A stretch of 64,000 nucleotides of DNA from Fidelibacterota bacterium (GCA_002708715.1 PAPB01000028.1:8611-72610); one strand, 5' to 3'. Counted from the first letter of the stretch, positions 45,495 through 64,000 are shown. A program made the numbers and translations. The notes: generated by a model not told the origin, from the letters alone.

Positions 45495-45601
45495 TGAGTT
45501 ACATGCTATTTTTTTCAATATTTTGGGCCATAGCGTTTATATGTATGGGACTATATTTGCGTTTAAAATATAAAAAGAAATTTGATGAACTTGATAATTA
45601 G
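45494..45601 (+). CDS. 35-aa single-TM membrane protein (CcmD-like pattern); not in ORF track
   Basis: TAATG overlap with the upstream stop, SD AAAGGA; MSYMLFFSIFWAIAFICMGLYLRLKYKKKFDELDN*. Confidence 0.6.
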   Translation: MSYMLFFSIFWAIAFICMGLYLRLKYKKKFDELDN

Positions 45602-47241: not shown

Positions 47242-48111
47242 TTATATTGATTCAGACACTTTTCTAATTTCTTTAAGGATCTCCATATATTCTTTCTTAC
47301 CATTTTTATAACGCTTGACAAATTGGGGAGGCATTTGCTTTTTAGGGATTAACACTACAGTTCCTCCCAACTCCTTACTTGCGATACTCTCTATATTTAA
47401 TAAAAATTTCTCAAAGGATTCTAACTTTACTCTGTAGGACTCGAAAGTTTTCGAAACTTCTATTATCCTATTTGAATATAATGATCCAGGTTCAATAAAT
47501 AGAGCGTGATTTAGTTTTTCATTAAAACGATCTATGTTTTCTTTTTCAAGTTTTCTTCTATATTGTAATTCATAGATTGATTGTTTGAGTGGTTTACACT
47601 CATCCTCAATATACATCAAGATTTGTTTAGTAGACTTAAATGCTTTTTTAAGTTTCTTAATATTTTTATAATAGTCACCTTGTTGATCTTTAATGCTTTC
47701 CCTTTTAGACTGAATTAAAAATCTATAACTGACAGTAGTATCCTTCGGCACATCATCTAGACTATCAGACCCTGTTTTTTTCATTCTTCTTACCAATGAA
47801 TATATATCTTTATAAAGACTATCAATATTACTCACACTTAATTTTATTGACTCATAAGGAGAATCAAGTTTCTCATAAATACGAAAATCTTTTTTTAAAT
47901 AATATTTTAATTGAGGCCGCATGATTTTGTTTAAATCTTTCATTTCTTTTTTTACTTTAAGACGCCACTCTTTGGTATCTAATATTCGGACATCTAGAGA
48001 TTGGATATCATTAAACTTAAATGGTTTTGTTTTCCCCAAACAGTTCATAAAAAAAAATAGGATTCCTACTAACGTAAAAATCCTAAAATTAATTAAAAAT
48101 TGTTTTATCAA
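47242..48111 (-). CDS. Hypothetical Lys-rich helical lipoprotein
   Basis: Hydrophobic N-terminus ending FMNC; coiled-coil-like and K-rich; last gene of the pgs operon. Confidence 0.6.
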   Translation of the reverse strand: MIKQFLINFRIFTLVGILFFFMNCLGKTKPFKFNDIQSLDVRILDTKEWRLKVKKEMKDLNKIMRPQLKYYLKKDFRIYEKLDSPYESIKLSVSNIDSLYKDIYSLVRRMKKTGSDSLDDVPKDTTVSYRFLIQSKRESIKDQQGDYYKNIKKLKKAFKSTKQILMYIEDECKPLKQSIYELQYRRKLEKENIDRFNEKLNHALFIEPGSLYSNRIIEVSKTFESYRVKLESFEKFLLNIESIASKELGGTVVLIPKKQMPPQFVKRYKNGKKEYMEILKEIRKVSESI

Positions 48112-48113
48112 TC

Positions 48114-48353
48114 CTATAATTTTCCTTCTCGTTCCATTTTTAAGAGATCATCAAAACCACCAATTGTTTTTCCTTCTATTACAATTTGAGGTACTGTTCT
48201 GCCGCCTGTTTTTTGAAAAAGATCATCTCTAGACCAATCTATTTTTTCTATATCAATTTCCTCAAATTTTAAGCCTTTATCATCTAATAGCCTTTTAGCC
48301 ATTTTACAAGGGCCACACCATGATGTTGTATATATTTTTATATTAGTCATCAC
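48114..48353 (-). CDS. Glutaredoxin
   Basis: YTTSWCGPC, TVPQI, IGGFDDL. Confidence 0.92.
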   Translation of the reverse strand: MMTNIKIYTTSWCGPCKMAKRLLDDKGLKFEEIDIEKIDWSRDDLFQKTGGRTVPQIVIEGKTIGGFDDLLKMEREGKL

Positions 48354-51300
48354 TTAAGCATTAATATTTTTTGGATTCCTATTTTTTTATCAACTTTGAC
48401 TACCGTAAAATATGTACCTGACCCTAAAGTCATTCCTAAGTTATTCTTTCCATTCCATGAAAAATTATAATGACCATTAACAAGTACTCCTTGATAAATA
48501 TTTGCAACCTGTCTTCCTAAAATATCTATAATGGTAATAGTTACATCTGCAGTATTTTCAACCATTAAATCAAAACTCGTCGTAGGGTTGAATGGATTAG
48601 GATAAGGAAGACCTAACCTAAATTGCTCTGAAGTAATTCTTTCATCGATACCCAATGGTCCAACATAATTATCTGGCGATTGAGTTGTAAATCGAATTAC
48701 TCGGCCATCTTCTAAAGGTGCTGCTCCAGGTGAATAAACATTATTGAAAACATATTGTAGACCATAATCCTTATCAGGCGCTTCTATTCCAACTGTAGAG
48801 TAATTTTTAGTCACATCTACATCATCAATATGTAGATATTGAAAATCAATCACCCCGTCACCAGTTTCAGTAGGAATAGAACTCTGATCATGGAAAATAA
48901 TTTCAAAAGTTTCTTCCGTCATTTCATCATAACCATTAAGAGCTCTTGACCATTCTATAACAAATCTTCCATTCGATTGATCATACCATGAATAAACGTT
49001 TATCCACTTATCAATGTTGCCATCACCATCAGTGTCAATAGTTTCAAGATCATCTGAAAATGGAGCTAATAAAGCTTTTGGTCCCATATACATCGGGATA
49101 GACATATTCCAAAAATAATCAATGTCACATGGAACAAATGAGGCCCAACCATTTGAATTAATTGTTATGTTCTCATATGTAATCCCATGGTATTGAAATG
49201 GGAAAGGCATTTCAAGATCAACATGATCATCATCGTCTAATTGATAATGTACCCCATTACTTCCACCATAATTTGGATCTAACTCAACCCAATCAAACAC
49301 TGGTGTAGCATCAAAACCAATATCTGTATTATCGTATGCCCAATAACCATAATCATCAGGAGCCAAAGGATAATTTGCAGTTGGTGGTTCAATATGAAGA
49401 GGCACATTTTGAATAAAAAACGAATTTTCATTTTTTATAAACTCTACACGAAAAGTCACATCGCTTCCATAGGCTATATTATCTAAAAATACATTATAAT
49501 TGGTTTCATGATTTGTTGAAATAAAAGGTGGAAAGTTTGACAGTAAATCTGATGCCCCATTTAAATTTACAGTAGCGCCTTCAGATAAAGCTGATAGCTG
49601 AACCCCCACACCTTCATAAGCTCCATCAGTATAATTGGTCACTACAAGGTTTGGACTTAATTCTGATCCTGGTAGACCAGAATTTACAAAGTCTATTCCA
49701 AATACTGGTTTTTCAACTTCTATTGCAAAATTGAACAAAATACTGCCATCAGGATTTTGAAGTCTGGCAACGACACTTCCTCCGACATCAGTACTAAAAC
49801 AAATAAAGTTCACGGTTGGTAATAAAACAGATGAGTTTCCAGAGATTGATGGAATATCTAGAGAAAATAAATTAGGCTCTACACTACCAATAAATGATAG
49901 CTCACTTTGTATCGGTTCCGTTGGAGTATCAGTAGTGTTTTTAAGACTTATGGTCATGCTAATCACCTCAGAGAGTACTGGCTTCACATTTCCATTTTCA
50001 GTGGAATAATTAATATCATCTATAATAATAGTACTATTATTATTTTCAATTGCGACTACGGAGTGCCCTTGTATAAATCCACCTTTATTTGCATAAATGT
50101 CAAGGCTTGCCAAACCATCAACGTTTAATGTAGTAAGAAACCGTCCGTTATGATCTGTAATACCTTTAGCAAGTAAATCACCATCACTCATCACACTAAT
50201 TACAGTCCTATCAACTGATTGATTATCTGATGAAGATACCATTATCTCAAGAAATCCCTCTGAATTATAGAGTGGCTGGATATTAAAAATAAATTCGCGA
50301 GGAGTGTCTAAATACACTTGCAATGATGGATCACCTAAAATATTATATACATTAGCATAAAATTCTTGTGCTTCACCTGGACCATTTTGGGCAGGAAATT
50401 CCTTTACTAAGCCAGACTGACCAGCCTGCATGGCAGGACCAAGTTCAACAACACCATGATTAAGCATTGCATCATACATATAAGCATTAATTACATTATT
50501 ATATTTAGTACTGGTATGTAAATCAGATGGACCTATAAAAGCGACACCTCCTTTAGGAACTGTAGGTGTACCACCTCTTATTACAGCTTCGGCAAGACAA
50601 GGATCAACATTATTTGCAAAATCATTCGAATTACAAACATAACTGAAAAACACAGGGGTCAACCAACCATTATTTAAATTATTTACATCATCTACATGAA
50701 ATTCAGGATAGTGCCAACCATTTGCATCACCCCAACCTCGATAATTAACGATACCAACTCCCTCATCTATGATTGACTTAATGTAAGGTGCTCCCTGTTG
50801 TATTGGAGGATAGAAAACAGTGTCTATTTCATTAAAACCATATTCTAATAATTCATCCCTCAGCCAATAAGATGTCCACTTAGGAGTAATGGGTATAGGG
50901 TAGGTATTAGCATAATTTCCCGCTACAATGAGACCTCTATCTAACCAATTTTGATTAAAAGCAAGAGGATCTCTTACATATTGTATTGTTTTTGACATTA
51001 TTACAGCCAAATCTGAAAGTGAATCAATAGATAATCTTCCTATAAATACATCAGGAATAACATCCTCGCCTAAAATATGAGTGTATTGTTGATCTGTAAC
51101 ATCATTCTCTGGTCCATAATAGAAAGAAGGGAACTCAGCAAAACCATCTACATCTCCAATAAGTAATACATATTCAAGCATAGCATCCATAGATAAAATA
51201 TCTTCTATAGTATTTTTTATTTCAGCAGCAGACCCTCCTGCTTCTGAAATTGACCTAACATATGTATCAAAACCTTGAGATTTTTTGAAGGAAATAAACT

Positions 51301-51529
51301 CATCTAAATATGGAGTAACTCCATCTGGAGCTATAATCAAATAGCTTCCTCTTTGAGGATTGATTTGTGAAGCTAAAATGTCATATTCACTCATAACCAT
51401 ATTAACAAAAGATAGAGGTATCTTTTGCGCTACTATTTGTTCTTTTGAATTCCCTCGAAATGATAATTCTCCTCCGAGCAAAATAGTTACGCCTATGACA
51501 ATTATAACTAGTTTTTTAAAATAATACAT
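48350..51529 (-). CDS. Peptidase C25 (gingipain-like) protein with NIDO-like and C-terminal sorting-like domains; catalytic His replaced
   Basis: YLIIAP..KKSQG, YVLLIGD, TDQQY..PDVFIGRL, VNYRGWG, YVCNS, YNILGDP; PYPNPFNP..GSGTYF..KILMLK. Confidence 0.85.
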   Translation of the reverse strand: MYYFKKLVIIVIGVTILLGGELSFRGNSKEQIVAQKIPLSFVNMVMSEYDILASQINPQRGSYLIIAPDGVTPYLDEFISFKKSQGFDTYVRSISEAGGSAAEIKNTIEDILSMDAMLEYVLLIGDVDGFAEFPSFYYGPENDVTDQQYTHILGEDVIPDVFIGRLSIDSLSDLAVIMSKTIQYVRDPLAFNQNWLDRGLIVAGNYANTYPIPITPKWTSYWLRDELLEYGFNEIDTVFYPPIQQGAPYIKSIIDEGVGIVNYRGWGDANGWHYPEFHVDDVNNLNNGWLTPVFFSYVCNSNDFANNVDPCLAEAVIRGGTPTVPKGGVAFIGPSDLHTSTKYNNVINAYMYDAMLNHGVVELGPAMQAGQSGLVKEFPAQNGPGEAQEFYANVYNILGDPSLQVYLDTPREFIFNIQPLYNSEGFLEIMVSSSDNQSVDRTVISVMSDGDLLAKGITDHNGRFLTTLNVDGLASLDIYANKGGFIQGHSVVAIENNNSTIIIDDINYSTENGNVKPVLSEVISMTISLKNTTDTPTEPIQSELSFIGSVEPNLFSLDIPSISGNSSVLLPTVNFICFSTDVGGSVVARLQNPDGSILFNFAIEVEKPVFGIDFVNSGLPGSELSPNLVVTNYTDGAYEGVGVQLSALSEGATVNLNGASDLLSNFPPFISTNHETNYNVFLDNIAYGSDVTFRVEFIKNENSFFIQNVPLHIEPPTANYPLAPDDYGYWAYDNTDIGFDATPVFDWVELDPNYGGSNGVHYQLDDDDHVDLEMPFPFQYHGITYENITINSNGWASFVPCDIDYFWNMSIPMYMGPKALLAPFSDDLETIDTDGDGNIDKWINVYSWYDQSNGRFVIEWSRALNGYDEMTEETFEIIFHDQSSIPTETGDGVIDFQYLHIDDVDVTKNYSTVGIEAPDKDYGLQYVFNNVYSPGAAPLEDGRVIRFTTQSPDNYVGPLGIDERITSEQFRLGLPYPNPFNPTTSFDLMVENTADVTITIIDILGRQVANIYQGVLVNGHYNFSWNGKNNLGMTLGSGTYFTVVKVDKKIGIQKILMLK

Positions 51530-53817
51530 TTTTTAATAGCCTGTTCTTTTAATGTTTCCACTTGAATAAAATAAACACCTGAGCTTAGTAGTAATCCATT
51601 TACCTTATTCAGATCTAAATGGATATTATGCTTACCTGATTTGAGGTTAAAATAATCTCTTGAAAGGACACTTTGACCTAGTAAATTATAAACTTTTATA
51701 TAAACGTTCCCACCAGAAAAATTTGTAAGACCAAACTCAAATTTCCCGTAAGATGGATTGGGAAATAAGGAATTAATTTTTAAAGGTATCTTAGGAAAAT
51801 TCATACTCTGAACTTTTTGGACACCTAAATAATTATCAAAAACAGAATAAAGTTTTAATGATTCTATTTCCCAACCTCTATAGTTTACTGTCTCATCTTT
51901 TAAAAATTCTAAGCGTATTTTCACATTTGAAAATAAACTATCATTCTCAGCACTTAAAAAATCATCTTCAAAAATGCTCCAATTATGTCCAGTCCAAAGT
52001 TTAGAGACTAGAATGTTATCATCGACATCTGTAATAGCAATTTTTATCGAGTCATAGTCCCACTCCGTCTCATATCTATGAGATACAGATAAAACCAAAC
52101 GATTACTCCCACTTACATCTATAATATCAGACTCAATCCATTGTAACCCATTGGAAGAATCACTATTGGAATAGTAAATATTGTCTTGGGATTTTAAAAT
52201 ATTATTATTTTCTACACACCAGGGACCAATACTGTTTTCAATTATCAATTCATTATTTAATAAAATAGGTATATTAGATCCATAATAAACATTCATCTCT
52301 TTATTTGCATTAATAAAGATTGTTTTCTCCCAAGGGATATAATCACCGCTCATTGCAAATTCAAAATGGTATTCACCCTCTGCTAAATCAAAATAATTAT
52401 CTCCAGAGGAAATTTCAATCTGCTCTTCTCTAAATTCATTTGATAAAACTCCACTTACTGTATGGCTTGATAAATCTTCATGAACCAATCTGATATTAAC
52501 CTGATAATTTTGCACAGGATTCAAATAAATATTATGCTCTGTGATACCACTGTTATTTGCTACAAGCGAAATACTCTGTTCGTAATAACCGTCTGCTCTA
52601 AATGAAAAGTTATAAGTACCTACTTCTAAAATACGCCTAAAGCGCCCAAATTCATTGGTTACCCTAGGTTTTAGAATAGAACCAGTATTTTCTAAAACCT
52701 CAACAATAACACCTTCTATTGGTTGATTAGTATTTGCATCAAAAACTCTACCTGTGACCTGAGCAGCATCTGCGTAATAACCAATAGCCCTATCCATCAG
52801 GTAAATCATAGCAGGTTTATTTCTATCTATAGTATCTTCGATAAGTGCACTATCTGGCTGAAGATTTGAGGTGCCACATTCCACAAGGTATTGCATACAT
52901 CCAGTTTCTCTATAAAACCAATCATGTAATTTCCCGTTTCGAGAACCACTAAAAACCGATAAATAAGTGCTAGTACCATCTTCTGTACTAATATTGCCTG
53001 CAAAATGATCTGCAATAGATTTCATAACTCCTAAATCTGGAGATTCTTTGACCTCCTCCCACTTCCATGAGGTAAATACTTTTTCTGATAGGTTACCTGA
53101 TCGTGAGCTATGCCATACAATAGAAAATACAAAATCGTTCTCTAAAGCAAGATCCCTAATTGCCTGTGCTTCACCCTCAGAGAAAGGTTCTTCACCTTTA
53201 TAATAGTCATAATGAGAGGCGTAGTCTGAATTATCTGGCTCAAGAAAAGTATCTCCGAATGCCCAATTAAAACTAAAATTTCTATTTAAATCAACTCCAT
53301 CTATATCATTACCAATAGAAGGATCATAATCGAATTCATTATTTGGGAAAGGACCGCTGGGAGATAAGTCTCTTTTATTTTTTCTGTAACTTAAATCTAA
53401 TCCATCATGGACAACATTGAGTCCTTCAGGATTAGCAGTAGGTATTAACCAAATATCTAGATATTGTTTTAAAATATTCATGTGAGATAGAATACTAGGA
53501 TCTGGAAATAGTAAATCATTTATTAAATCAATAATAATCTCAACACCCAGTATCTCCTCGGCGTGTACTTGGCCTATAAAAAGCACCCTAGGCTCATCCT
53601 CTTTAATATCTGCATTGTCTGAAATTCTCACAGCAAGAATTGGTATATTTTCTTGAGTGGATACACCAATGGTATCTAAGTGAAACCAGTCGTCAATCTC
53701 TTCAATTTGATTTAAAGAATCTAAAAGACTATATATTTCATCTACAGAATGGTAACGCTCATCCAGAGACTGCCCAACAAGAAATGAAAGAAATAATATA
53801 CTGAAAATAAACTTCAT
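51508..53817 (-). CDS. Secreted M14 zinc carboxypeptidase with CarboxypepD_reg-like and C-terminal sorting-like domains
   Basis: HAEE, PTANPEG, RKN, GVDLNRNF, WHS, VECG; VTGRVFDANT..TNEFG.F; FPNPS..SSGVYFI..KCIILK. Confidence 0.88.
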   Translation of the reverse strand: MKFIFSILFLSFLVGQSLDERYHSVDEIYSLLDSLNQIEEIDDWFHLDTIGVSTQENIPILAVRISDNADIKEDEPRVLFIGQVHAEEILGVEIIIDLINDLLFPDPSILSHMNILKQYLDIWLIPTANPEGLNVVHDGLDLSYRKNKRDLSPSGPFPNNEFDYDPSIGNDIDGVDLNRNFSFNWAFGDTFLEPDNSDYASHYDYYKGEEPFSEGEAQAIRDLALENDFVFSIVWHSSRSGNLSEKVFTSWKWEEVKESPDLGVMKSIADHFAGNISTEDGTSTYLSVFSGSRNGKLHDWFYRETGCMQYLVECGTSNLQPDSALIEDTIDRNKPAMIYLMDRAIGYYADAAQVTGRVFDANTNQPIEGVIVEVLENTGSILKPRVTNEFGRFRRILEVGTYNFSFRADGYYEQSISLVANNSGITEHNIYLNPVQNYQVNIRLVHEDLSSHTVSGVLSNEFREEQIEISSGDNYFDLAEGEYHFEFAMSGDYIPWEKTIFINANKEMNVYYGSNIPILLNNELIIENSIGPWCVENNNILKSQDNIYYSNSDSSNGLQWIESDIIDVSGSNRLVLSVSHRYETEWDYDSIKIAITDVDDNILVSKLWTGHNWSIFEDDFLSAENDSLFSNVKIRLEFLKDETVNYRGWEIESLKLYSVFDNYLGVQKVQSMNFPKIPLKINSLFPNPSYGKFEFGLTNFSGGNVYIKVYNLLGQSVLSRDYFNLKSGKHNIHLDLNKVNGLLLSSGVYFIQVETLKEQAIKKCIILKN

Positions 53818-53820
53818 TCT

Positions 53821-56800
53821 CTACTTTAAGTAAGTAATCTTACCTTGTGCAATATTATGCTTTGTGTAAAATTTATAAAGATAAATTCCGCTTGATATTG
53901 GTTCCCCTTTTTGATTAGTCCCGTTCCAAAAGATTCTCTGTTTTCCGCCGAAGCTAGGTAAAATCAATCTATCATATATTTTCCTTCCTGATAAATCATA
54001 TATGCTAAATGTAATGGATTGTTTTACAGGTGCATCAAAATCAAAATATATCTGACCATTAAATGGATTAGGATAGGCAGCGTTTAAATTAAATTGATTA
54101 GGTACTTCACAGTTGGTGCAAGATGGCCTAGATGATAAAAGAGTGGCTTTCATTAATGTTTTACCATAATAGTTTGCCAAATCTTCTTTACCTGAGCTTC
54201 TATAATCGATCCAATCAAGAAAATATTCTTCTCCAGAATGCTTAGTAATATTCACACTTTGCTGCTTATGATAAGCAATACAAATAGATATCCCATTAAC
54301 GTCAGTTGTCATTCCTTGTCCAATAATATAACCACTACCATACAAATCAACACCGTTAATTAAAAGTGGGTCAGAATTATAATACCCTCTCTCATCCTCC
54401 CAGACTATCAAAAACTCACTATCCTGCACTAGGGCAAGTTTAGGGTTGTATTGGTTAGTAGTATCACTTGAGAATTGAATACTTTGATCGCTCAAAGAAC
54501 CTGACCCTAGATCTAAAACATCACCAAATATTTCAAAATCTACCCCATTACGATAATCCTCCCAGGCAATAAATGCATGTGTTTTATTTCCATTTAATTC
54601 AAAAGAAAAATTAACCTGATCATTATCGGCTTCAGAAATAGGTACACCCCCATCTGTCCATAGATTTTCACCATCCCAATTCAACATTTGGGCATAGATA
54701 TCTGAAAAATTACCATCTTGTGACCATACTGCTAAAATACCACTATCATCAGTAACAGGCTTTACTTTTAAATTTCTAGAATCAAAAGAGCTATTACTAA
54801 GACTGTTTCCATTTGGATTCCAACCAATTTCGATATTTCCTTCAGCATCAATTTTTGTAAATTTTAAAGAAGATGCTGGCCATGCATCTTCCATCCAGAA
54901 TATCATAAAATTGCCATCAGGAGTTGGAACCACAGCCATTATATAATCATCGGCGTTTGATCCAACTAATTCAATACCATCATTGTCTAATGTAAAATTT
55001 CCATTTAGATCTAGCTTTTGATAATAAATATCATAATTAAATCCTCTACTCTCCGACCAAAAACAACCAATACCATCTGGAGTCTCAAATAGCATCGCAC
55101 TACGCATATCAAAAACTGCAGAAAGAGCGATACCTGATGGATCCCAGGCATTAGTTAGATCATCAAGCACTCTATTAATCCGAATAAATTTTGGAGAAGA
55201 TGATCCATCAAATGTTGCAGTATATAGACCACTTGAAGCATCCAAAATAACTGGAGTAGAAAAATCAGTTTCCGAAGAAGAATTATCACCAAATGTAATT
55301 TGTGCACCATTAGGATATAATGCCGATAGATCAGTGAGCCTATTGCTATATATTGTTTTTGATGCACGATTATCTTCCCAAACATGTAGAAGTTCTTGAT
55401 CATCTATGCGATATGTATGGGAGTAATTCACATCACCATCTAAACCATCCATAGTTACTAACCCAGTCTCGCTCCAAACTGTACTAAAATCTGCACTTAA
55501 TTTCTGAACCATAAGGTCTATGCTTCCTGATCCTTGGTCCGCATATATTGCATAGAGCCCACTTTGGTTATTACCACTTAATATTGGCGAAAATTGATAA
55601 CCAGTATTATCTGAAATGTGTATTGGTTCAGTTAAACTATAACTACCATCAGAATTAATATTTTGAAAGAGGATATCCACATCAGGAAAAGTACCTCTTT
55701 CCCAGATTACACTTACACCTCCTTGACTGCTAGCAGAAAACCTTGCACTGAAATCAACATCTTCAACAGGATCTAGGCGGATTCCATCACCCCACTGCTG
55801 ATCTCCATCTGTATTAATTTTTTGAAAATATTGATCTCCATCAATTGGATCATCTCTGAGATCTTTCCAATTAACAAATACCTCTCCCATGCTATTTCTC
55901 TTTACCCGTGGTGCAGTCTGCAAAGCATTATTAGTGGAAATAGGTTTAGGATCGGGGAAGACTAAACCATCCTGATTAATTAGTTGATATAAAACCTTAG
56001 AATTTTCATCACCTCTTTTCCAAGCAATAAATGAAACATTATTATTTACAAAAGTGGCTCTTGGTTTTAACTCCTGTTCATCGCTAGCTGCAATAGGTAG
56101 CCCATTTTCTTCAAACAATCCTAACATATTGACGTCTAAGCGTTGACCATATATATCTGCATTGGCACCCTGACGAAAATCAGCCCAGGCAATAAAGGCT
56201 TCATTATTTCCAGCATATTCTATAGTCTTTGCATTTTGGTTGCCTCCCTCAACAACAATGGGGACACCTACTCCTTGAGCTAAAACTTCATGATTTGCAG
56301 ATACATGGGTGCCATAAATATCATCATCAACCCCGCCTCGTTTATCCTGCCAAGTGATAAACACACCCCCTAGACTATCAGTACACATATTAATAGTTAT
56401 CTGCTTTCCTACAACCTCAGCTAAAGCGACTCCATTCGAATCAAGTAATATTTCACCATTAGTATTTACATGCTGTAGAAAGATATCACCCTGAGCATCA
56501 AATCTGTAATCAACCCAAGCAATAAAGGCACCACCAACTCCATCTGTTATCGCAACTGGGTCCTCTTGCCTTCCTGGTAGATTAGTAATAATCGCTCCTG
56601 AATCGCCCCATAACAAGTCACCGTCTTGATTGATTTTATGAGCAAATATATTTCTCATTCCATAGCGAGTATCTGACCAGACAAATATCGCTTCACCTTC
56701 GTTTCCTGGGGCAGTAGTCCTGTACCATTCAATATGAACACCTTGTCTTATAGGTGCTCCATCCTGATCATTAAAACCAGAAGCATAAATTTGTACTAAA

Positions 56801-56832
56801 AAGCACAAAGTAATAAACAATTTCTTATTCAT
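53821..56832 (-). CDS. Secreted WxDxR-repeat (beta-propeller-like) protein with C-terminal sorting-like domain
   Basis: Repeated WSDTR/WVDYR/WQDKR/WADFR/WKDLR/WEDNR/WEDYR/WEDER/WIDYR with DIY.Q..N..G...W; AYPNPFN..SSGIYLY..KITYLK. Confidence 0.75.
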   Translation of the reverse strand: MNKKLFITLCFLVQIYASGFNDQDGAPIRQGVHIEWYRTTAPGNEGEAIFVWSDTRYGMRNIFAHKINQDGDLLWGDSGAIITNLPGRQEDPVAITDGVGGAFIAWVDYRFDAQGDIFLQHVNTNGEILLDSNGVALAEVVGKQITINMCTDSLGGVFITWQDKRGGVDDDIYGTHVSANHEVLAQGVGVPIVVEGGNQNAKTIEYAGNNEAFIAWADFRQGANADIYGQRLDVNMLGLFEENGLPIAASDEQELKPRATFVNNNVSFIAWKRGDENSKVLYQLINQDGLVFPDPKPISTNNALQTAPRVKRNSMGEVFVNWKDLRDDPIDGDQYFQKINTDGDQQWGDGIRLDPVEDVDFSARFSASSQGGVSVIWERGTFPDVDILFQNINSDGSYSLTEPIHISDNTGYQFSPILSGNNQSGLYAIYADQGSGSIDLMVQKLSADFSTVWSETGLVTMDGLDGDVNYSHTYRIDDQELLHVWEDNRASKTIYSNRLTDLSALYPNGAQITFGDNSSSETDFSTPVILDASSGLYTATFDGSSSPKFIRINRVLDDLTNAWDPSGIALSAVFDMRSAMLFETPDGIGCFWSESRGFNYDIYYQKLDLNGNFTLDNDGIELVGSNADDYIMAVVPTPDGNFMIFWMEDAWPASSLKFTKIDAEGNIEIGWNPNGNSLSNSSFDSRNLKVKPVTDDSGILAVWSQDGNFSDIYAQMLNWDGENLWTDGGVPISEADNDQVNFSFELNGNKTHAFIAWEDYRNGVDFEIFGDVLDLGSGSLSDQSIQFSSDTTNQYNPKLALVQDSEFLIVWEDERGYYNSDPLLINGVDLYGSGYIIGQGMTTDVNGISICIAYHKQQSVNITKHSGEEYFLDWIDYRSSGKEDLANYYGKTLMKATLLSSRPSCTNCEVPNQFNLNAAYPNPFNGQIYFDFDAPVKQSITFSIYDLSGRKIYDRLILPSFGGKQRIFWNGTNQKGEPISSGIYLYKFYTKHNIAQGKITYLK

Positions 56833-56864
56833 TGTTATCCTTTATAAAATTTTATAATTATCTT

Positions 56865-57893
56865 TTATTGTGTTATAGTTATTAGTTGCAAACCTTCTCT
56901 TGAACATACCAATAATTTGCCTTCCCAAAAAGCAGACATATAAGAATAACCAATAGGAAACACACCTCTTTCAATGGGACTTTCGGGGTTAGAGATATCA
57001 TATAATGCGATACCTTTTGACCCCAATGACAGGACCGCAATATTACTATTAGTGGCTATGTGATCTACAGTGAAATCCTGAGCAAAAGAGAAGGATATTT
57101 TGGATGTTGAAAAGCTTTCAAACGGAATATAAGTAGCACCAGCATTATCACAAGCAACAAAAACTCCAGATGTAGATAAAGTTACTTTTTCCGCATTACC
57201 TTCAGTGTCTACACGACCTACAAATTCTGGATTAGCACCAAGTGAATCAATTGTATAGAGCTCCACACCTAATTGATCTACAGCCATTACAATTTTAGAT
57301 TGGCCATCTGAATCTATACCTAGTGGTTTTCCAGGTGTATATAACTCAGCATCTTCAATAGGAGGATATACAGGATTCCAATTTATTTGGTCAAATACAT
57401 CAACGGGCTCATATATACTCCATTTTAGGCCATCATCATTATCCGCAGAGTACATTACAAATTGACCTGAGCCAGATGGATATGATATAAAATCTTTTGT
57501 GCGAGCACTCATTATTGTATTGCGATATATAAGACTATCACCACCATCAAAGTGAAATATTTTGACATCCTGATTCGATTCTGATACAAATAATAGATCA
57601 TTAATAGCATCGCGACCTACCAACGCAAGATCTTCAAATTCTAAAAACGTCCCAAGTTCCTCATATCCTTTGTAATCATAGAGTAAAGAATGACCAGGAA
57701 GATCCCATACCTGAACGCCAGATTGACCAGCAGCAACAAAAGCACTACTTCCCTCAACTGTTATGGATCTCGCAAATCCTTCAGTCTGCATTATAGTTTC
57801 AATTGAAACAGACCAAAGGTCTTCAGTATTTGGCTCCATACAACTTTGCAATATTAAAATTAATATTAAAACTGATTTCTTAATATTTGTCAT
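56865..57893 (-). CDS. LVIVD-repeat lipoprotein
   Basis: Lipobox LQSC; AFVAAGQSGVQVWDL, DTEGNAEKV, GIALYDISNPESP. Confidence 0.75.
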   Translation of the reverse strand: MTNIKKSVLILILILQSCMEPNTEDLWSVSIETIMQTEGFARSITVEGSSAFVAAGQSGVQVWDLPGHSLLYDYKGYEELGTFLEFEDLALVGRDAINDLLFVSESNQDVKIFHFDGGDSLIYRNTIMSARTKDFISYPSGSGQFVMYSADNDDGLKWSIYEPVDVFDQINWNPVYPPIEDAELYTPGKPLGIDSDGQSKIVMAVDQLGVELYTIDSLGANPEFVGRVDTEGNAEKVTLSTSGVFVACDNAGATYIPFESFSTSKISFSFAQDFTVDHIATNSNIAVLSLGSKGIALYDISNPESPIERGVFPIGYSYMSAFWEGKLLVCSREGLQLITITQ

Positions 57894-58911
57894 ACATCAA
57901 ATCCCATTCTATATTAACCCAGTACTGAATCTGGTTAAAACTTTTTAAATTACTTACCCACTGAAAAGCAGAGTCTGTAACCCTAGATCTGTAGCGACTT
58001 GAAATTTTAATTGAAATATCTTCACCTATGCTTTTTCTAATCCACAAATCATATTTTCTATCAATATGGCTACGACCAGCATGTAAAACATCATTAGGGT
58101 CCTCTGCATCATAGGTTCTTTTTTCAGCTCTATATGAGAAGCCAAATGAACTAAGAAAAGGTCCATTATATTTAAACTTAAATGGTAAAAAGACTTCTCT
58201 GGTGTTATATGACCTATCAAAACTACTTGGTCGTATAGGTCCAATATGTGATTCGCTCAACGCTCTTCCTTGGTTAACCTGTAATGCTAGTGTTCCTATT
58301 CTCTTTAGCTTATAGTTCAATTTGGCCCTTAAATTTATAATATCTAGATCAAATTCGGTAAATGGTTTTTCGTAATATCTTTGCAAATATCCAGCTCCAA
58401 TATTTATCCAAGAATATTTTGTTATACGCTGAGTTACAGTGATAATTTGATCCCTATCTGAAAAATAACATGCCTCTAATCTGTTAGTACTAATATCCTT
58501 ATTCACATAATGTCTCAAATAAAATTTATCTAAATGACGCAATGAGAATTTTATATTTTTATAGGAACCCCATTTATAAATCAGATCAAGTCCTGAGGAC
58601 CAATATCTCTTGTCTTGTGCATTAACATAACTTGATAGTGAAAATTTTGTATTCATTGAAAGATTTCTATTTTTAGAGATCCACAGATCTTTTTTTGATG
58701 AAAAACCAAATTTTGATATAAAACTATCAAAATGGGTTGACCTACCTAAAATATCTGGTGTTTGAGAAGCATTATCAATTTCTTCTACTGAAAAACGCAT
58801 AACATTGCTATCATACCCACTTGCTAAACTTATAGTATAGTCCCAAGGTGTTCTTGCAATTAGCAATGAAAAACTTGCAATAAAATAAAGTGTAGATTGT
58901 ATTGATTTCAT
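57880..58911 (-). CDS. Probable outer-membrane beta-barrel protein, Arg/Lys-rich
   Basis: Signal peptide; N-terminal GYDSNV motif; alternating aromatic strands; C-terminal YWVNIEW. Confidence 0.65.
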   Translation of the reverse strand: MKSIQSTLYFIASFSLLIARTPWDYTISLASGYDSNVMRFSVEEIDNASQTPDILGRSTHFDSFISKFGFSSKKDLWISKNRNLSMNTKFSLSSYVNAQDKRYWSSGLDLIYKWGSYKNIKFSLRHLDKFYLRHYVNKDISTNRLEACYFSDRDQIITVTQRITKYSWINIGAGYLQRYYEKPFTEFDLDIINLRAKLNYKLKRIGTLALQVNQGRALSESHIGPIRPSSFDRSYNTREVFLPFKFKYNGPFLSSFGFSYRAEKRTYDAEDPNDVLHAGRSHIDRKYDLWIRKSIGEDISIKISSRYRSRVTDSAFQWVSNLKSFNQIQYWVNIEWDLMYDKY

Positions 58912-59786
58912 TAGTAAAGTATAAAACGTGTAAGTATCGCTTTATCCTTATCAGGAATTTCAATAGAATAATGATGCTTACCCTTTGGCACCTTTATTTC
59001 ACAGGTTCGCCATTTTCCAGGCACCATATCCATCCTTTTTAAAATTTGCGCGTCAGATGATCTTTCTGTACTAAAATAGTAAGTTCCAATAATTTTATTT
59101 TTTTCCTTTACTTTTATTCGATATGATTCTTCTTGACCCATCATATCCGAAAATTGAAGTCTACTCATAATCCGAAGAGTCTTTTTCCCTTTAGCTTCAA
59201 TTTTTAAGGGATATTGAGATGTGCATTCAAAATAGGATACTTTCTCATCTTCAATCTTTAATTCAATAGCGTTCTGGTGAACCATGGGCTGTAGGATTTT
59301 CTTTTTCTTATTCACAACACCAAATTCTTTAGCCAAAACTCTAAGTAAAACAGGGTATTTTGATTTATTCTCTTTAATAAGTTCTATTTTATGAGTACCC
59401 TGGCTAAGATTAATAAAATAGTTACCTGAGTAAGTATACTTATGTTTTGGATGTTGGACTGATTTTATTGACTTCTGTATTTTATATCGATGATTAACAG
59501 TTATTGTATCTTTATCATCAATAATAATTCGATATCTAAAAGAGTGGCTTTTGCCTTTTTTCTTTAATACTGGATACCTTGAAATAAATTCTAATCGCGT
59601 AGGCCCTTCTACGGAATAATGGATACCACTTTTTTCAAGAGGATAGTATAGCCTCCTTTTCCCATTAATAATTAATATTTCTTTTTTTTCACCATTTTGC
59701 GATGGTTTTAATAGTTTTGCCTCAATAGGAAAAACTAAAAAAAATAAAAATAATATAAAAAATTTAGAGTAGACTGTCTGGTTCAT
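58911..59786 (-). CDS. Hypothetical secreted, highly basic two-domain protein
   Basis: Signal peptide ending IEA; internal duplication VEGPTRLEFISR / AKGKKTLRIMSR and GTHKIEL / GKHHYSI; very K-rich. Confidence 0.65.
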   Translation of the reverse strand: MNQTVYSKFFILFLFFLVFPIEAKLLKPSQNGEKKEILIINGKRRLYYPLEKSGIHYSVEGPTRLEFISRYPVLKKKGKSHSFRYRIIIDDKDTITVNHRYKIQKSIKSVQHPKHKYTYSGNYFINLSQGTHKIELIKENKSKYPVLLRVLAKEFGVVNKKKKILQPMVHQNAIELKIEDEKVSYFECTSQYPLKIEAKGKKTLRIMSRLQFSDMMGQEESYRIKVKEKNKIIGTYYFSTERSSDAQILKRMDMVPGKWRTCEIKVPKGKHHYSIEIPDKDKAILTRFILY

Positions 59787-60915
59787 GTTGAATTAAATGT
59801 TGTTTAATATTTTTTTTACTTTTAACACCCACAATCAATACACTTCCCGATACAATCAACATACAAATGGAAGCCACTAATAGACTGTAATGTTCTTTTT
59901 TATATAAACTCCCATCACCTATCTCTGGAATAGGGATTGGAGCAAATGGTATTTTAAACTGTTCCGTAAGCGGTTTAATATTTAAAATATGTAAACCATG
60001 CACACCTGAATTTATGAATTTAGAGAACACTCCTTCAATACCTCCTGGCCTACTAATATTCATTAGGTCGGACCTATTCACAATACCTGGAGGTAATAAT
60101 TTTGAATTAAAACTCGTTCCTAAACTTGCAACTCCACCACCCACATTTATAACCGCTTTATAATTTTCAATTGGCAAATAGGATGAAAATATATTCAGCC
60201 TTGTACTTATATTTTCAGCTAATTTTTTATTTTTAATAAGAGGAATACCATAAGAAGATATATTATCAGTGATAATTTTCCTACCAGCAGGAGAAAGTAA
60301 CCTTCCCATATCATTTCGACCACCAATAGAAGCAGCTATACTTTTTGAAATATAAAGTCCATTATCTACTAATGTATATTCCATATCTAACCAAGTAAAG
60401 TCAGTATGGTTTGCCCCCCACTGTGAAGCGCCCAGGCTCGAAATGATAACTGGTGTAATACCCATTGCTTGGCATGCAGACAAAACGGCAAGATTAGCTC
60501 CAGGCATTGAACCCGTCATTAATACCGCAACAGTATCATTGGACTTAAGGTTGATTTGGACCATAAGGTCAACAATGACTGCAGAAAAGTTTGGATCTAA
60601 AGTTGTTAATTTTGAGTCTAAATCTCCTTCATCAGTTGTTATCAAACTAAAAGGACTACCCACTAAACCAGTTTCATTAGGATCATTTTCAATGTCAACG
60701 AAAACACCTTTTTCCATTCTTTGATTTTTAAGTATTTGCATAGCATCATTCATCAAATTTGCAGCAATGATTTTTTGGTCATAAGAGTTAGATTTTTCTA
60801 TAACTTTATAATTAATTGTAATTATAAAGCATAAAAGCGCTAAAATTGATAACCAAACAAGAGTTGATGTTTTTTGAATCGCTGGAATAAATGGCTGTTT
60901 TTTATAATTGTTCAA
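59764..60915 (-). CDS. pgsW: Poly-gamma-glutamate system protein PgsW
   Basis: N- and C-terminal TM; DPNETGLVG..ITT..G.L..K.TT..PNF, TGSMPGANLA, GASQWGAN, INVGGG; follows pgsC; start reassigned to TTG 60915. Confidence 0.85.
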   Translation of the reverse strand: MNNYKKQPFIPAIQKTSTLVWLSILALLCFIITINYKVIEKSNSYDQKIIAANLMNDAMQILKNQRMEKGVFVDIENDPNETGLVGSPFSLITTDEGDLDSKLTTLDPNFSAVIVDLMVQINLKSNDTVAVLMTGSMPGANLAVLSACQAMGITPVIISSLGASQWGANHTDFTWLDMEYTLVDNGLYISKSIAASIGGRNDMGRLLSPAGRKIITDNISSYGIPLIKNKKLAENISTRLNIFSSYLPIENYKAVINVGGGVASLGTSFNSKLLPPGIVNRSDLMNISRPGGIEGVFSKFINSGVHGLHILNIKPLTEQFKIPFAPIPIPEIGDGSLYKKEHYSLLVASICMLIVSGSVLIVGVKSKKNIKQHLIQHEPDSLL

Positions 60916-61351
60916 ATAAAACCCCACCAAAAAGTAAAATAATTGCAAGTTTTACTATCACAGCCGTAAGGATTACCACTGAAAGAGTTCTTATAACACC
61001 CTGTCTATCCATCCAATTTGCTATTAACCCTGGTATAATATTACCAATAACAGCTACAGAACCTATTTCTGATGGTATAAAAATAAAATTTCTAGATAAA
61101 AAACCGAAAAAGAAACCTAAGATCAAAGCTAAAACAATTCGTCTTTTCCCATATAAAAATACTTTTTTCCCTAATATTTGTATTATTGCCCACACTATTA
61201 TTGCAACAACAAATGTTATAATAATTTGAAGTGGTTGATGCAAATATAATGATATATAGCCTGGAACAATAATTCCTCCTGCTGTAACACCCAGTGTCTC
61301 AGATAACAAAAGACTTAAAATAATACCGAGACCTATAGTGACTTCATCCAT
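60902..61351 (-). CDS. pgsC: Poly-gamma-glutamate biosynthesis protein PgsC/CapC
   Basis: LSE..G..AGGIIVPGY, LYGKRR, IG.IIPGLIANWMDRQG. Confidence 0.95.
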   Translation of the reverse strand: MDEVTIGLGIILSLLLSETLGVTAGGIIVPGYISLYLHQPLQIIITFVVAIIVWAIIQILGKKVFLYGKRRIVLALILGFFFGFLSRNFIFIPSEIGSVAVIGNIIPGLIANWMDRQGVIRTLSVVILTAVIVKLAIILLFGGVLFEQL

Positions 61352-62525
61352 TATACTTATACTCTGAAACTTTTTTTAAAATTTCTTGGCCCGCGCCTAC
61401 TTGATTTCCGATAGCATAAATCAACGTATTATGCGGTAGATTTCTAAATTTTGATATTACCTCTTCAATTGGATTTTCTAATCCAATAATTTCAATATTA
61501 GTTTTTGGAGAATGGTTTATAAAACTATCAACAGTTTTTTTGACTTTATCACCTCTTATAAAAAAATAATCTGGTTTAATTTCCTGCAAAGTTAATTCAA
61601 TCATCTGCATAGTCCTTGAAGGCCTATCATCTCTAGAGTTAAAAAAAATACAGGTGCCGTCACTATTAACATATCGATCCATAATAAATTTCCATATTTG
61701 TAAAGTTGAGACAGGATCATTTGCAGCCATACCATTTATAAATTGAAGTTTCTTATTATTTAGATTAAGTGTCCACGCAATTAATGCACCCACATCTGGT
61801 TGGACTTTATACATTCCTTTAAGAGCAGTGACGCGGTTTACCCCTGCCTGATGGCAAACATCAAGTGCAACAGCAATATTTGATGGATGCTCCATGTAAT
61901 GGAATCGATCTAACTCTACTTGTTTAATAGTAGATTCATCTGATTTAATAAATAAAGAACCATTATCATCTGCAATTTCTTTTAAAATTTCAGGTTTTTG
62001 ATCTTCCCCCGTTATCAGAACACTATCAATAGGTACTGTATTACAAAGAGAACGAGCTACATCGTCCTCTGTTGGCCCCATCTCATCTAAGTGATCAGGC
62101 CTAACATTTGTGATCACACCTATATGAGACTTTACCATTTGATGTTCTGCAATCCACTGATACTGAGGCTGAACAGCCATACATTCTATAACGACAGCAT
62201 CAGGTTTTTGTGATGCAAAATAACTCAATAAACGAACCTGCTCTCCTATGGATGGCAAACGCAAACGATGAATAATACGATCTTTACCTTCTGAATCAAT
62301 AACCCTTGGGGCAGTACCAGTTGTCTTAGCAAAAGTTCGTAAACCACCTTCTCTCAAACCTGCAGCAACTAGGCGGGTAACACTAGACTTACCTCTTGTA
62401 CCATTAACATGAATACGTAGAGGAATCGAAGATAATGATTTTAAATGGAATTGATATTCGAGGATACCTGCTATACATAATGCAAAGACTAAGGAACCCA
62501 AAACAATAAGGGGCATAATTGTCAT
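61344..62525 (-). CDS. pgsB: Poly-gamma-glutamate synthase PgsB/CapB
   Basis: RIHVNGTRGKSSVTRL, AKTTGT, IGEQ, ECMAVQP, TNVRPDHLDEMGPT, AANDP.ST, R.DR..R. Confidence 0.96.
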   Translation of the reverse strand: MTIMPLIVLGSLVFALCIAGILEYQFHLKSLSSIPLRIHVNGTRGKSSVTRLVAAGLREGGLRTFAKTTGTAPRVIDSEGKDRIIHRLRLPSIGEQVRLLSYFASQKPDAVVIECMAVQPQYQWIAEHQMVKSHIGVITNVRPDHLDEMGPTEDDVARSLCNTVPIDSVLITGEDQKPEILKEIADDNGSLFIKSDESTIKQVELDRFHYMEHPSNIAVALDVCHQAGVNRVTALKGMYKVQPDVGALIAWTLNLNNKKLQFINGMAANDPVSTLQIWKFIMDRYVNSDGTCIFFNSRDDRPSRTMQMIELTLQEIKPDYFFIRGDKVKKTVDSFINHSPKTNIEIIGLENPIEEVISKFRNLPHNTLIYAIGNQVGAGQEILKKVSEYKYNG

Positions 62526-62547
62526 TACACTTGATAGACTTTTCTAG

Positions 62548-64000
62548 TTATTGCACATATCCCATGATCATCTGAATCAAGGATATAAGGTCCATAACAT
62601 TTACCATGCCGTCACCATTAATATCCCCAAAAAAAGGATTGACCTGGCCATCATAGCCCAAATTATAATCTACTAACAACATAAGATCGTAAATATCAAC
62701 AACCTCATCATGATTAAGATCACCTTCAAGACGAATATCGCTACCACGAGTAGTAATTAAAATAGCTCTTTCATCACCCAATTCCATAGCTGCAGGGTGA
62801 TATTCATTATCAAAGGTATATTGAAGACCTCTGGTCATTGTATGATCTTCTATACCAACACTACAATAGTTTCCATGTATCTGATCCCAGCTGTATGATC
62901 CATATGAAGTATTATTAAAATCTTTATATTGTAATAAAATTTCACCATCCCCAGTTGGAGTAATGTAATAGCTAGGATCATAAAGAACCGCTTGAAATGT
63001 TTCCAATGAATTATTTTGATATGTTCTAACACCAGACCATTCAACATAAAACTTTTTCTCTATTTGATCAAACCAAGTATACACTCTACCACCATTGGAG
63101 GTCTTTAGGTCATCCCAAAAAACTGCAATCATCGGTGAAGGTCCTCCAACACCAGGTATTTGATAATTACGGAATGATTCCATACTAGTTTGACCCATTG
63201 CTATCCAACCATTTGAACAAATACTTATTTGGTCATAGTCTTGGCCATAAAATCTAAATGTGAAAGGTAAATTTATCGTTTCTACATCATCCTGATTATT
63301 ACCACTGTCCGTTAGAGAATTTAAATACGTTCCAGGTCCTCCTTCTCTATCATCAATTTCTATCCAATTATATGTTGGCGCTAGCACATAATTGATATCC
63401 TCATTATCATAAATATAATAACCATAATCATCTGGACCAACTGGATCAAATACAGTTGGAGTTCCTATCTGTATAGGTACTATAGAATTTGATGAGTATC
63501 CATCCGCTGTTTCAATATTTACTATGAGATGTGCCACAGTTCCAGGTAAAGTTTCCTCAAGTGTGCTCACCTCAAAATAATCATTCCCATTAAAAGATGT
63601 TCCTCCAGAAGTAACAGAAGACCATGTACCAGTGTTATCTATTATTTCAACAAATGGAGATGCACATGTTATTGTTGCAGAAACAGATAGGGCATTTGTT
63701 TCACCATCATTTTTCAACCCTATTTTTACATAAGATGACTCTCCTGGTGTTAGGACATCACTAGCAGAACCAATAACATCTACATCATAAGCACTTAAAT
63801 TATTACCTGAAACTTTAATATCAAGGTAACCACTAAATGTGTTACCTACATCATCAGTGAAATCTACCTGCAACCCAAGATCAGACTCATCTGGGATACC
63901 ATCCATTAGATATACAACAAATGGTGTACTTCCTCCAAGTGTTTGTCCTGCAGTGATATTTCCAAATTCTATCGTTGAACTTTCGGCATCTATATTAACA
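62548..64000 (-). CDS. C-terminal part of a large secreted protein with Ig-like, NIDO-like and dockerin-like domains (paralog of the 48350-51529 protein); runs off window end
   Basis: Frame open from 63999 (VNIDAESSTIEFGNI..); GPDDYGY..LPFTFRFYG..SNGW..IAVFWDDL; dockerin GDLNHDEVVDIYD..GDINGDGMVNVMD. Confidence 0.8.
   Translation of the reverse strand, partial: VNIDAESSTIEFGNITAGQTLGGSTPFVVYLMDGIPDESDLGLQVDFTDDVGNTFSGYLDIKVSGNNLSAYDVDVIGSASDVLTPGESSYVKIGLKNDGETNALSVSATITCASPFVEIIDNTGTWSSVTSGGTSFNGNDYFEVSTLEETLPGTVAHLIVNIETADGYSSNSIVPIQIGTPTVFDPVGPDDYGYYIYDNEDINYVLAPTYNWIEIDDREGGPGTYLNSLTDSGNNQDDVETINLPFTFRFYGQDYDQISICSNGWIAMGQTSMESFRNYQIPGVGGPSPMIAVFWDDLKTSNGGRVYTWFDQIEKKFYVEWSGVRTYQNNSLETFQAVLYDPSYYITPTGDGEILLQYKDFNNTSYGSYSWDQIHGNYCSVGIEDHTMTRGLQYTFDNEYHPAAMELGDERAILITTRGSDIRLEGDLNHDEVVDIYDLMLLVDYNLGYDGQVNPFFGDINGDGMVNVMDLISLIQMIMGYVQ

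Follow-up and report, generated by a model that had tools for sequence, protein, structure and literature searches.

Poly-gamma-glutamate is known as a capsule, as a biofilm component and as an industrial polymer, and its synthesis has been studied almost only in Bacillus, in cells with a single membrane. The closest described systems are PgsBCA(E) of Bacillus and CapBCADE of B. anthracis. Among Gram-negative bacteria, Fusobacterium nucleatum is reported to produce polyglutamate (Candela et al. 2009, as cited in PMC3815933). The subject here is a gene cluster from a Fidelibacterota bacterium, a member of the phylum also named Marinimicrobia or Candidatus Neomarinimicrobiota. It lies at the end of a stretch of 64,000 nucleotides (GCA_002708715.1, PAPB01000028.1:8611-72610; G000:C28:8611-72610 in our own numbering of genome and contig), which is called the window in the following. 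In this cluster, the poly-gamma-glutamate genes pgsB, pgsC and pgsW are located between a gene designated g01 and the genes g05 to g10. Judged from the sequences and from structural models, it appears rather probable that these ten genes form a conserved system for the synthesis of poly-gamma-glutamate and for its delivery, without CapA and CapD, to the surface of a cell with two membranes. A literature search found no description of this cluster, and no account of poly-gamma-glutamate crossing an outer membrane.

For exopolysaccharides, synthase-dependent secretion is known for alginate (AlgE, AlgK and AlgX), poly-N-acetylglucosamine (PgaA and PgaB) and cellulose (BcsB and BcsC), and AlgE provides a positively lined pore for a polyanion. 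The cluster shares with these systems an inner-membrane synthase, periplasmic jelly-roll domains (Z score of 8.8 to BcsB), an outer-membrane barrel and a lipoprotein, all as predicted. It differs in that the polymer would be a polyamide, in that the barrel is modelled with 14 strands and resembles CymA and OmpG, as compared to 16-18 strands in the exopolysaccharide systems (BcsC, Z 13.4), and in that a tetratricopeptide repeat domain is absent.

Like the Bacillus systems, the cluster encodes PgsB and PgsC at the level of equivalogs, and next to them a third protein, which is membrane-bound and has a large domain outside the cytoplasm. In contrast to Bacillus, however, neither PgsA/CapA nor the CapD-type gamma-glutamyltranspeptidase is encoded with pgsBC, the host has two membranes, and the cluster contains in addition a predicted periplasmic protein, a barrel, a lipoprotein and four surface proteins of large size. 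The TIGR04332-type cassette has pgsB, pgsC and the third gene in the order found here, the third gene being automatically annotated as 'poly-gamma-glutamate system protein'. The definition of this cassette ends at the third gene, whereas in the cluster there follow the g05 and barrel families, which match no Pfam or NCBIfam model.

Conservation of the ten-gene cluster

The cluster was analysed in 40 pgsW neighbourhoods of about 20 kb each, which represent at least 17 family-level groups, using profiles built from orthologues. By profile search, g05, the barrel gene g06 and the lipoprotein gene g07 were each identified in 39 of the 40 neighbourhoods, the gene for the repeat protein g08 in 37, and the genes for the M14 carboxypeptidase g09 and the C25-family protein g10 in 33 each. 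A C25 gene of the g01 type was present in 30 of the 40, for which only 3.5 kb of upstream sequence were covered. The single locus without any partner gene carries a very divergent pgsW (28% identity), and several other missing genes fall into stretches ended by contig ends. In tblastn searches, the order g01-pgsB-pgsC-pgsW-g05-g06-g07-g08-g09-g10-grx, with grx being the glutaredoxin gene g11, was intact throughout the taxonomic order to which the window belongs, and distant families contain the same cluster genes in a rearranged form. By tblastn, g07 was seemingly missing from many families; the lipoprotein encoded there matched the g07 profile at 14 of 14 loci. In the window's order, the ten-gene system is extended by the glutaredoxin and by a basic protein, g12: the glutaredoxin gene was found beside the cluster only in this order, and g12 mostly in its own family and at three further loci of the order.

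As a control for the flanking regions, 80 loci were compared, which overlap partly with the 40 neighbourhoods. The upstream pilus genes are adjacent only down to a PgsW identity of about 53% (u1 at 26 of 51 loci, u2 at 33 of 51), and the cluster genes were kept (g01 at 46 of 51 loci, g05 at 66 of 67, the barrel gene at 63 of 67 and g08 at 51 of 56). The cluster outlasts its flanks. Outside the phylum, contigs of metagenome-assembled genomes titled KSB1, Bacteroidales (two contigs) and Sphingobacteriia carry the genes for a C25-like protein, PgsB, PgsC, PgsW, g05, barrel and lipoprotein, in that order. The original prediction had set beforehand, as its own test, the synteny of barrel, lipoprotein, repeat, M14 and C25 genes with pgsBCW; this synteny was found phylum-wide and in other lineages of the Fibrobacteres-Chlorobi-Bacteroidetes group.

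On the genome level, 401 genomes were sampled from the phylum, and pgsW was identified in 178 of them. Both pgsW and the barrel gene were present in 161 genomes, pgsW only in 17, the barrel gene only in 4 and neither in 219. When pgsW was compared with strong g01-profile matches (E value of at most 1e-150), the corresponding numbers were 166, 12, 13 and 210. These counts, many of which come from incomplete metagenome-assembled genomes, describe a pattern and are not a statistical test. Taken as a whole, g01 to g10 are a unit conserved to a degree well above what chance would give. The original prediction of a different gene set by which poly-gamma-glutamate is made and exported is well supported as a role that we infer.

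Synthase proteins and the two C25-family proteins

The product of pgsB (61344..62525, minus strand) is the ligase subunit of poly-gamma-glutamate synthase and reached 407.9 bits on TIGR04012, for which the cut-off is 222.7. It contains an N-terminal membrane helix, a P-loop (GTRGKSS) near the N-terminus and a match to Mur_ligase_M. PgsC (60902..61351, minus strand), a membrane subunit with four hydrophobic segments and a PF14102 match, scored 115.1 bits on TIGR04011 (cut-off 96.45). Directly after pgsB and pgsC follows pgsW (59764..60948, minus strand, with an uncertain start codon), the product of which scored 292.2 bits on TIGR04332 (cut-off 100). As all three are far above the curated cut-offs, the identities originally given to these genes stand. 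Family membership shows PgsB to be the ATP-dependent ligase and PgsC its membrane partner, as far as function can be assigned from sequence, and likewise places a TIGR04332 protein where Bacillus has PgsA/CapA. From the hydropathy of PgsW, membrane helices are predicted at residues 27-45 and 357-375, around a domain of about 310 amino acids. In a search of its profile against the sequences of the PDB, no significant relative was identified (best E value 0.11), and its atlas neighbours belong to its own family only, all of them being named 'poly-gamma-glutamate system protein'.

The original prediction had noted the absence of capA and capD from the window, and this was confirmed by a profile search, in which no PGA_cap or GGT match was found on the contig of the window. 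Nor do capA or capD lie just beyond the window, where pilus and secretin genes are located instead. In the genome as a whole, one match to PGA_cap (PF09587) and one match to GGT exist, so that the two domains are not missing from the organism; both are on contig C38. The PGA_cap match is part of a frame of 1588 amino acids at about 8.9-13.6 kb (L002, L003); a scan of 1202 of its residues showed PKD and PGA_cap domains, and a dockerin match is present in the same frame. It would code for a CapA-like protein outside the cell, and frames of about 1585-1635 amino acids like this one recur in many genomes of the phylum. The C38 protein was considered as a PgsA of the Bacillus type and was rejected on the basis of its length, its PKD domain, its dockerin match and a distribution which does not track pgsW. 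In family f5, pgsW is present in 22 of 66 genomes and PGA_cap in none of the 66; in family f26, pgsW is present in 1 of 33 and PGA_cap in 27 of 33; in families f7, f8, f14 and f20, all sampled genomes contain pgsW and none PGA_cap. Since the distribution of PGA_cap does not follow that of pgsW, the cluster is considered to be independent of CapA.

The first gene of the cluster had been described as coding for a NIDO/dockerin protein. These domains are indeed present; however, the window contains only the C-terminal 483 amino acids of g01 (62548..64000, minus strand), and the whole gene (G000:C28:71158-74745), which leaves the window, codes for a gingipain-like C25 protein of 1195 amino acids with the domains Propeptide_C25, Peptidase_C25, C25 Ig-like, NIDO and dockerin. 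It scored 150.8 bits on Peptidase_C25 (PF01364) and aligned with the gingipain RgpB (1cvr) with an E value of 4.8e-21. The second C25-family protein, g10 (48350..51529, minus strand), has 1059 amino acids and a C-terminal type IX sorting domain, and gave 183.1 bits on PF01364 and an E value of 1.7e-23 to RgpB. Because g01 aligns with RgpB over both the propeptide and the catalytic domain, there are two gingipain-like proteins, one for each end of the cluster. As to the dockerin of g01, of which it carries one, 19 dockerin matches and only two weak cohesin matches (E value about 8e-5) were found in the genome.

The two proteins resemble RgpB and PorU in the homology of the catalytic domain, in the propeptide and Ig-like domain of g01 and in a cysteine at the position of Cys244. 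They differ in the catalytic histidine. At the column of RgpB His211 (motif GHG), g10 has tryptophan (NYRGWG) and g01 has tyrosine. The pgsBCW neighbourhoods retrieved here encode 141 distinct C25 proteins, and in these the His211 column contains Trp in 76, Tyr in 49, Phe in 11, Leu in 3, Glu in 2 and His in none; the position of Cys244 is occupied by Cys in all 141, and two positions before the lost histidine there is Arg, again in 141 of 141. The orthologues of g01 retain NYRG[YFWL] and TCGTG in 25 of 25 sequences. The histidine is kept in PorU and in one further C25 protein encoded by this genome; at the arginine column, these have Ile and Thr. The C25 proteins of the cluster would be pseudo-enzymes with a binding function or, alternatively, enzymes whose mechanism has changed. 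Because two other histidine residues are nearly invariant in the g01 family, there is room for activity of its members.

It had also been proposed that the C25 protein is analogous to the sortase PorU. This analogy is weakened, since g10 reached only 54.5 bits on the PorU model NF033707 (cut-off 420), mostly from its sorting domain, the true PorU of the genome is encoded on another contig (C37, 599.8 bits), and the catalytic histidine is replaced in both proteins. On these grounds g01 and g10 were rejected as PorU.

A functional equivalence to CapD is a separate matter. Here, the C25-like proteins would be cysteine-dependent transpeptidases, which tether polyglutamate covalently to a protein C-terminus or to an amine of lipopolysaccharide, so that an anchored capsule is formed and not a released polymer. 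The C25 family includes PorU as a sortase-type transpeptidase, the cysteine and the arginine are invariant as described, the C25 propeptide of g01 hints at a regulated enzyme, and the C25-like gene belongs to the core even on the KSB1 and Bacteroidales contigs. However, the canonical histidine is found in 0 of 141 proteins, while PorU and the other C25 protein of the genome keep it, and no acceptor molecule was identified. We therefore regard a CapD equivalent of this kind as unlikely, and it is equally doubtful whether the histidine-less, arginine-bearing proteins form a new enzyme class which acts on gamma-glutamyl bonds with the conserved cysteine and a carboxylate of the substrate, and which cuts or tethers polyglutamate outside the cell.

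Candidate export proteins and putative secreted enzymes

The gene g05 (58911..59786, minus strand) codes for a basic exported protein with a signal peptide but without a lipobox. The AlphaFold2 model (mean predicted local distance difference test, pLDDT, of 91.9) consists of two jelly rolls similar to carbohydrate-binding modules (CBM), at residues 22-156 and 157-291, with fold matches to CBM35/36 (Z about 9) and to the polymer-guiding domains of BcsB. Arg70, Arg149, Arg209, Arg260 and His112 are conserved.

Gene g06 (57880..58911, minus strand) had been predicted to code for a basic outer-membrane barrel, and the confident model (pLDDT 90.8) is a 14-stranded barrel. The best structural matches are two open channels, CymA (Z 23.8, root mean square deviation 3.4 over 284 residues) and OmpG (Z 21), followed by FadL (about 16.5), PorV (13.9-14.2) and BcsC. 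When lumen-facing positions are assigned by strand alternation, 23 Lys/Arg residues stand against 13 Asp/Glu residues, and the conserved Arg133, Arg265, Arg308 and Arg310 face the lumen by sequence pattern, not by coordinates. Pfam scans of 33 barrel and 34 g05 orthologues gave scattered noise only. A search for fused barrel proteins of 680-2000 amino acids found none at an E value of 1e-5, which is weak evidence, and a complex prediction for g05 and g06 gave a score of 0.16, below the mark of 0.32, and does not count as evidence either way. An 'in-frame TAA' in the barrel genes of some relatives was rejected, as these are the true stops of those genes.

The third protein, g07 (56865..57893, minus strand), is a predicted lipoprotein with beta-propeller repeats of the LVIVD type. 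Of the original description as an LVIVD lipoprotein, the lipoprotein part is borne out by Cys18, which is invariant among the orthologues. The LVIVD repeat (PF08309) was matched by 13 of 20 orthologues (best E value 2.6e-12); the copy in the window, however, remains below the cut-off (15.3 bits compared to 20.2). Its profile gave nothing significant among PDB sequences, with a protein of the WD40 type as the best match (E value 0.017).

It might be considered that g06 belongs to the PorV-like accessory barrels of type IX secretion and holds the sorting domains of g08 to g10, and that polyglutamate leaves the cell otherwise or stays in the periplasm. PorV is also 14-stranded and aligns with the model of g06, the genome contains many PorV-like paralogues, and three cargo genes are located just downstream of g06. 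On the other hand, none of the ten matches which the PorV model NF033710 gave in the genome at an E value of 1e-5 falls on g06. Moreover, g06 is much nearer to CymA and OmpG than to FadL or PorV, and it is a basic protein whose gene always accompanies that of the basic g05 directly after pgsW. We thus consider it very unlikely that g06 serves as such an accessory barrel. The ten PorV-model matches are all below the cut-off and correspond to about nine frames of the genome (G000).

The three cargo genes are g08, g09 and g10. Their products scored 28.6, 40.6 and 26.5 bits on the type IX sorting domain TIGR04183 (cut-off 23), and PorU and SprA were identified when the genome was searched for core genes of type IX secretion, as had been suggested; with both findings, the three proteins qualify as type A cargo. 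Type IX cargo genes are common in this genome, since at least 50 sorting-domain matches are contained in 2.47 Mb, and the type IX system is unusually rich in cargo.

For g08 (53821..56832, minus strand), a protein of 1003 amino acids, the WxDxR repeats noticed originally were found again as about ten W-x-[DEQS]-x-R units, which are spaced at multiples of about 55 residues. In total, about 16 repeat units of about 55 amino acids each are present. These repeats probably form beta-propellers, and the atlas neighbours of g08 are propeller-type type IX cargo, which is taken as a lead only.

The M14 zinc carboxypeptidase g09 (51508..53817, minus strand) carries a transthyretin-like domain and a sorting domain in addition to its catalytic domain, which scored 112.5 bits on PF00246 and aligned with carboxypeptidase T with an E value of 1.9e-11. 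The M14 motifs HxxE, RKN and NRN and the His, Tyr and Glu residues are conserved in 34 of 34 sequences. In M14 enzymes, HxxE and His are the zinc ligands, Glu is the catalytic residue, and Arg, Asn-Arg and Tyr bind the C-terminal carboxylate; by this comparison of sequences, the catalytic set of g09 is complete. A histidine (34 of 34) is present at the column of the Asp in the specificity pocket of carboxypeptidase T, with a basic residue 4-5 positions earlier; a C-terminal glutamate would fit well into a pocket of such positive charge. A second M14 protein is encoded in the genome. In PMC4497714, the phage poly-gamma-glutamate hydrolase PghP is described as a zinc enzyme related to carboxypeptidase A. 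This shows that the zinc carboxypeptidase fold, which g09 shares with its full catalytic set, can hydrolyse the polymer. However, g09 is a member of Pfam M14 and not of the PghP family, and it is fused to transthyretin-like and type IX sorting domains.

That only pgsB, pgsC and pgsW concern polyglutamate, and that the M14, C25 and repeat proteins are a nutritional set for protein degradation at the surface like the gingipains and CPG70 which merely shares the operon, is suggested by the alignment of both C25 proteins with RgpB, by the abundance of cargo genes and by the layout of g09, which matches that of CPG70 from Porphyromonas, but is made highly improbable by the synteny with pgsW and the co-occurrence with it in genomes, both of which extend through the phylum and past its limits, by the loss of the catalytic histidine only in the C25 proteins of the cluster, by the replacement of the arginine-binding Asp163 of RgpB with Pro/Lys in g10 and Val in g01 (in a loop where the alignment is uncertain), and by the pocket histidine of g09 in a position where enzymes specific for basic residues have Asp.

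For a system that makes poly-gamma-glutamate and delivers it to the cell surface, the following route is proposed. The large loop of PgsW between its two membrane helices would face the periplasm, where the basic two-domain jelly-roll protein g05 would receive the polyanion and thus be a candidate polymer guide. The basic 14-stranded g06 and the propeller lipoprotein g07 may then pass the polymer across the outer membrane, in a layout which mirrors that of synthase-dependent exopolysaccharide systems. At the surface, four large acidic proteins would act on the polymer, three of them delivered by type IX secretion and one carrying a dockerin. Among these, g09 with the histidine in its specificity pocket might trim gamma-linked glutamate from chain ends, and the two gingipain-like proteins, with the nucleophilic cysteine and the family-specific arginine but without the catalytic histidine, may use a non-canonical mechanism to hold the polymer, to cut it or to tether it.

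Expression of the cluster was followed in one marine metatranscriptome run, in which contigs of 150-350 nt with at least 99% identity cover parts of g01, g06, g07, g08 and g10, and one contig spans the overlap of g09 and g10. These contigs show presence in an RNA library and not co-transcription; carry-over of DNA is possible, and parts without cover carry no meaning. The contig across the g09/g10 overlap has one base fewer than the window at position 51518 (depth 2), which may reflect either an error of the assembly or variation between strains.

Several points weigh against the proposed route. The strong acidity of the secreted proteins fits poorly with the binding of a polyanion unless cations bridge the two, and the C25 proteins, lacking the canonical histidine, may be inactive. 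The Z values of the g05 fold matches are intermediate and do not establish a function, and the charge estimate for g06 was obtained from strand alternation and not from coordinates. The M14 and g10 genes are absent from the fetched stretch in 7 of the 40 neighbourhoods, some of the stretches being short, and 17 of the 178 pgsW genomes, which are incomplete assemblies from metagenomes, have no barrel match. Moreover, the genomes of one phylum are related, so that the counts are not independent, and the metatranscriptome contigs are short and do not show one transcript.

Gene arrangement and significance of the cluster

From position 47242 to the end of the window, twelve open reading frames are encoded on the minus strand. 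Following the ten-gene system, the accessory gene g11 (48114..48353, minus strand) codes for a glutaredoxin (PF00462, 68 bits), and the accessory gene g12 (47242..48111, minus strand) for a basic, lysine-rich protein without a known family, which has an N-terminal hydrophobic segment. The junctions range from an overlap of 47 nt to a gap of 32 nt in the table of reading frames: a gap of 22 nt between g01 and pgsB, overlaps of 8 nt between pgsB and pgsC, 47 nt between pgsC and pgsW (where the start of pgsW is uncertain), 23 nt between pgsW and g05, 1 nt between g05 and g06 and 14 nt between g06 and g07, gaps of 32 nt between g07 and g08 and 3 nt between g08 and g09, overlaps of 22 nt between g09 and g10 and 4 nt between g10 and g11, and a gap of 2 nt between g11 and g12. 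The original description of twelve co-oriented genes with gaps of at most about 32 bp was therefore accurate, and the M14, C25 and glutaredoxin domains it named were all found by a domain scan. The proteins g05, g06 and g12 had been called basic, in agreement with isoelectric points of 9.87, 9.56 and 9.70, as compared to 4.1-4.5 for the secreted proteins. For the g05, g06, g07 and g12 proteins of the window, no Pfam or NCBIfam model was matched.

The run of minus-strand genes is closed by a convergent gene on the plus strand, which ends at 47234. The product of this gene (45582-47234) is a DUF6055 protein carrying a type IX sorting domain; together with a small neighbour (44889-45494, plus strand), the gene is kept beside the cluster within the window's order. 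The window as a whole is almost entirely encoded on the minus strand, and upstream of g01 at least 14 further genes follow in the same orientation and equally tightly packed. Five of these were scanned and code for a prepilin peptidase, a PilC-like T2SSF protein, a PilB-like ATPase, a Big_1 protein and a secretin. This packed run of genes resembling those of type IV pili and type II secretion systems (L001:2759-17283, corresponding to G000:C28:74758-89282, minus strand) begins directly beyond g01 and adjoins the polyglutamate cluster only within the window's order. Because the tight, co-oriented packing goes on upstream, the limits of an operon are not definable by spacing or orientation, and the limits of the cluster were set by conservation. 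A scan of promoter-like and terminator-like sequences sets no operon limits either, since it gave no excess over shuffled sequences (65 promoter-like compared to 87.5 expected, and 7 terminator-like compared to 7.1). At 48058-48085 on the minus strand, 29 nt past the stop codon of the glutaredoxin gene and inside the 5' end of the g12 reading frame, a hairpin of 12 pairs is followed by a T-run; this could be a terminator or just the coding sequence of a Phe-rich signal peptide.

The cluster contains two unnamed protein families, the barrel and g05, and one altered enzyme family, the C25 proteins. A gingipain-related family which has lost the catalytic histidine but retains the cysteine poses a clear question of enzymology. 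If the C25 proteins are gamma-glutamyl enzymes, the cells would build a capsule that requires type IX secretion for its assembly, and the cluster would also be the first complete two-membrane route for a polyamide polymer, comprising a synthase, a periplasmic guide, a 14-stranded, positively lined channel and anchoring at the surface. For each step of export, the cluster provides concrete candidates, namely g05 as periplasmic binder, g06 as channel, g07 as lipoprotein, and enzymes at the surface; these are encoded by ocean bacteria of a very abundant group as well as in related phyla. The cluster probably shows how two-membrane cells put poly-gamma-glutamate on their surface.

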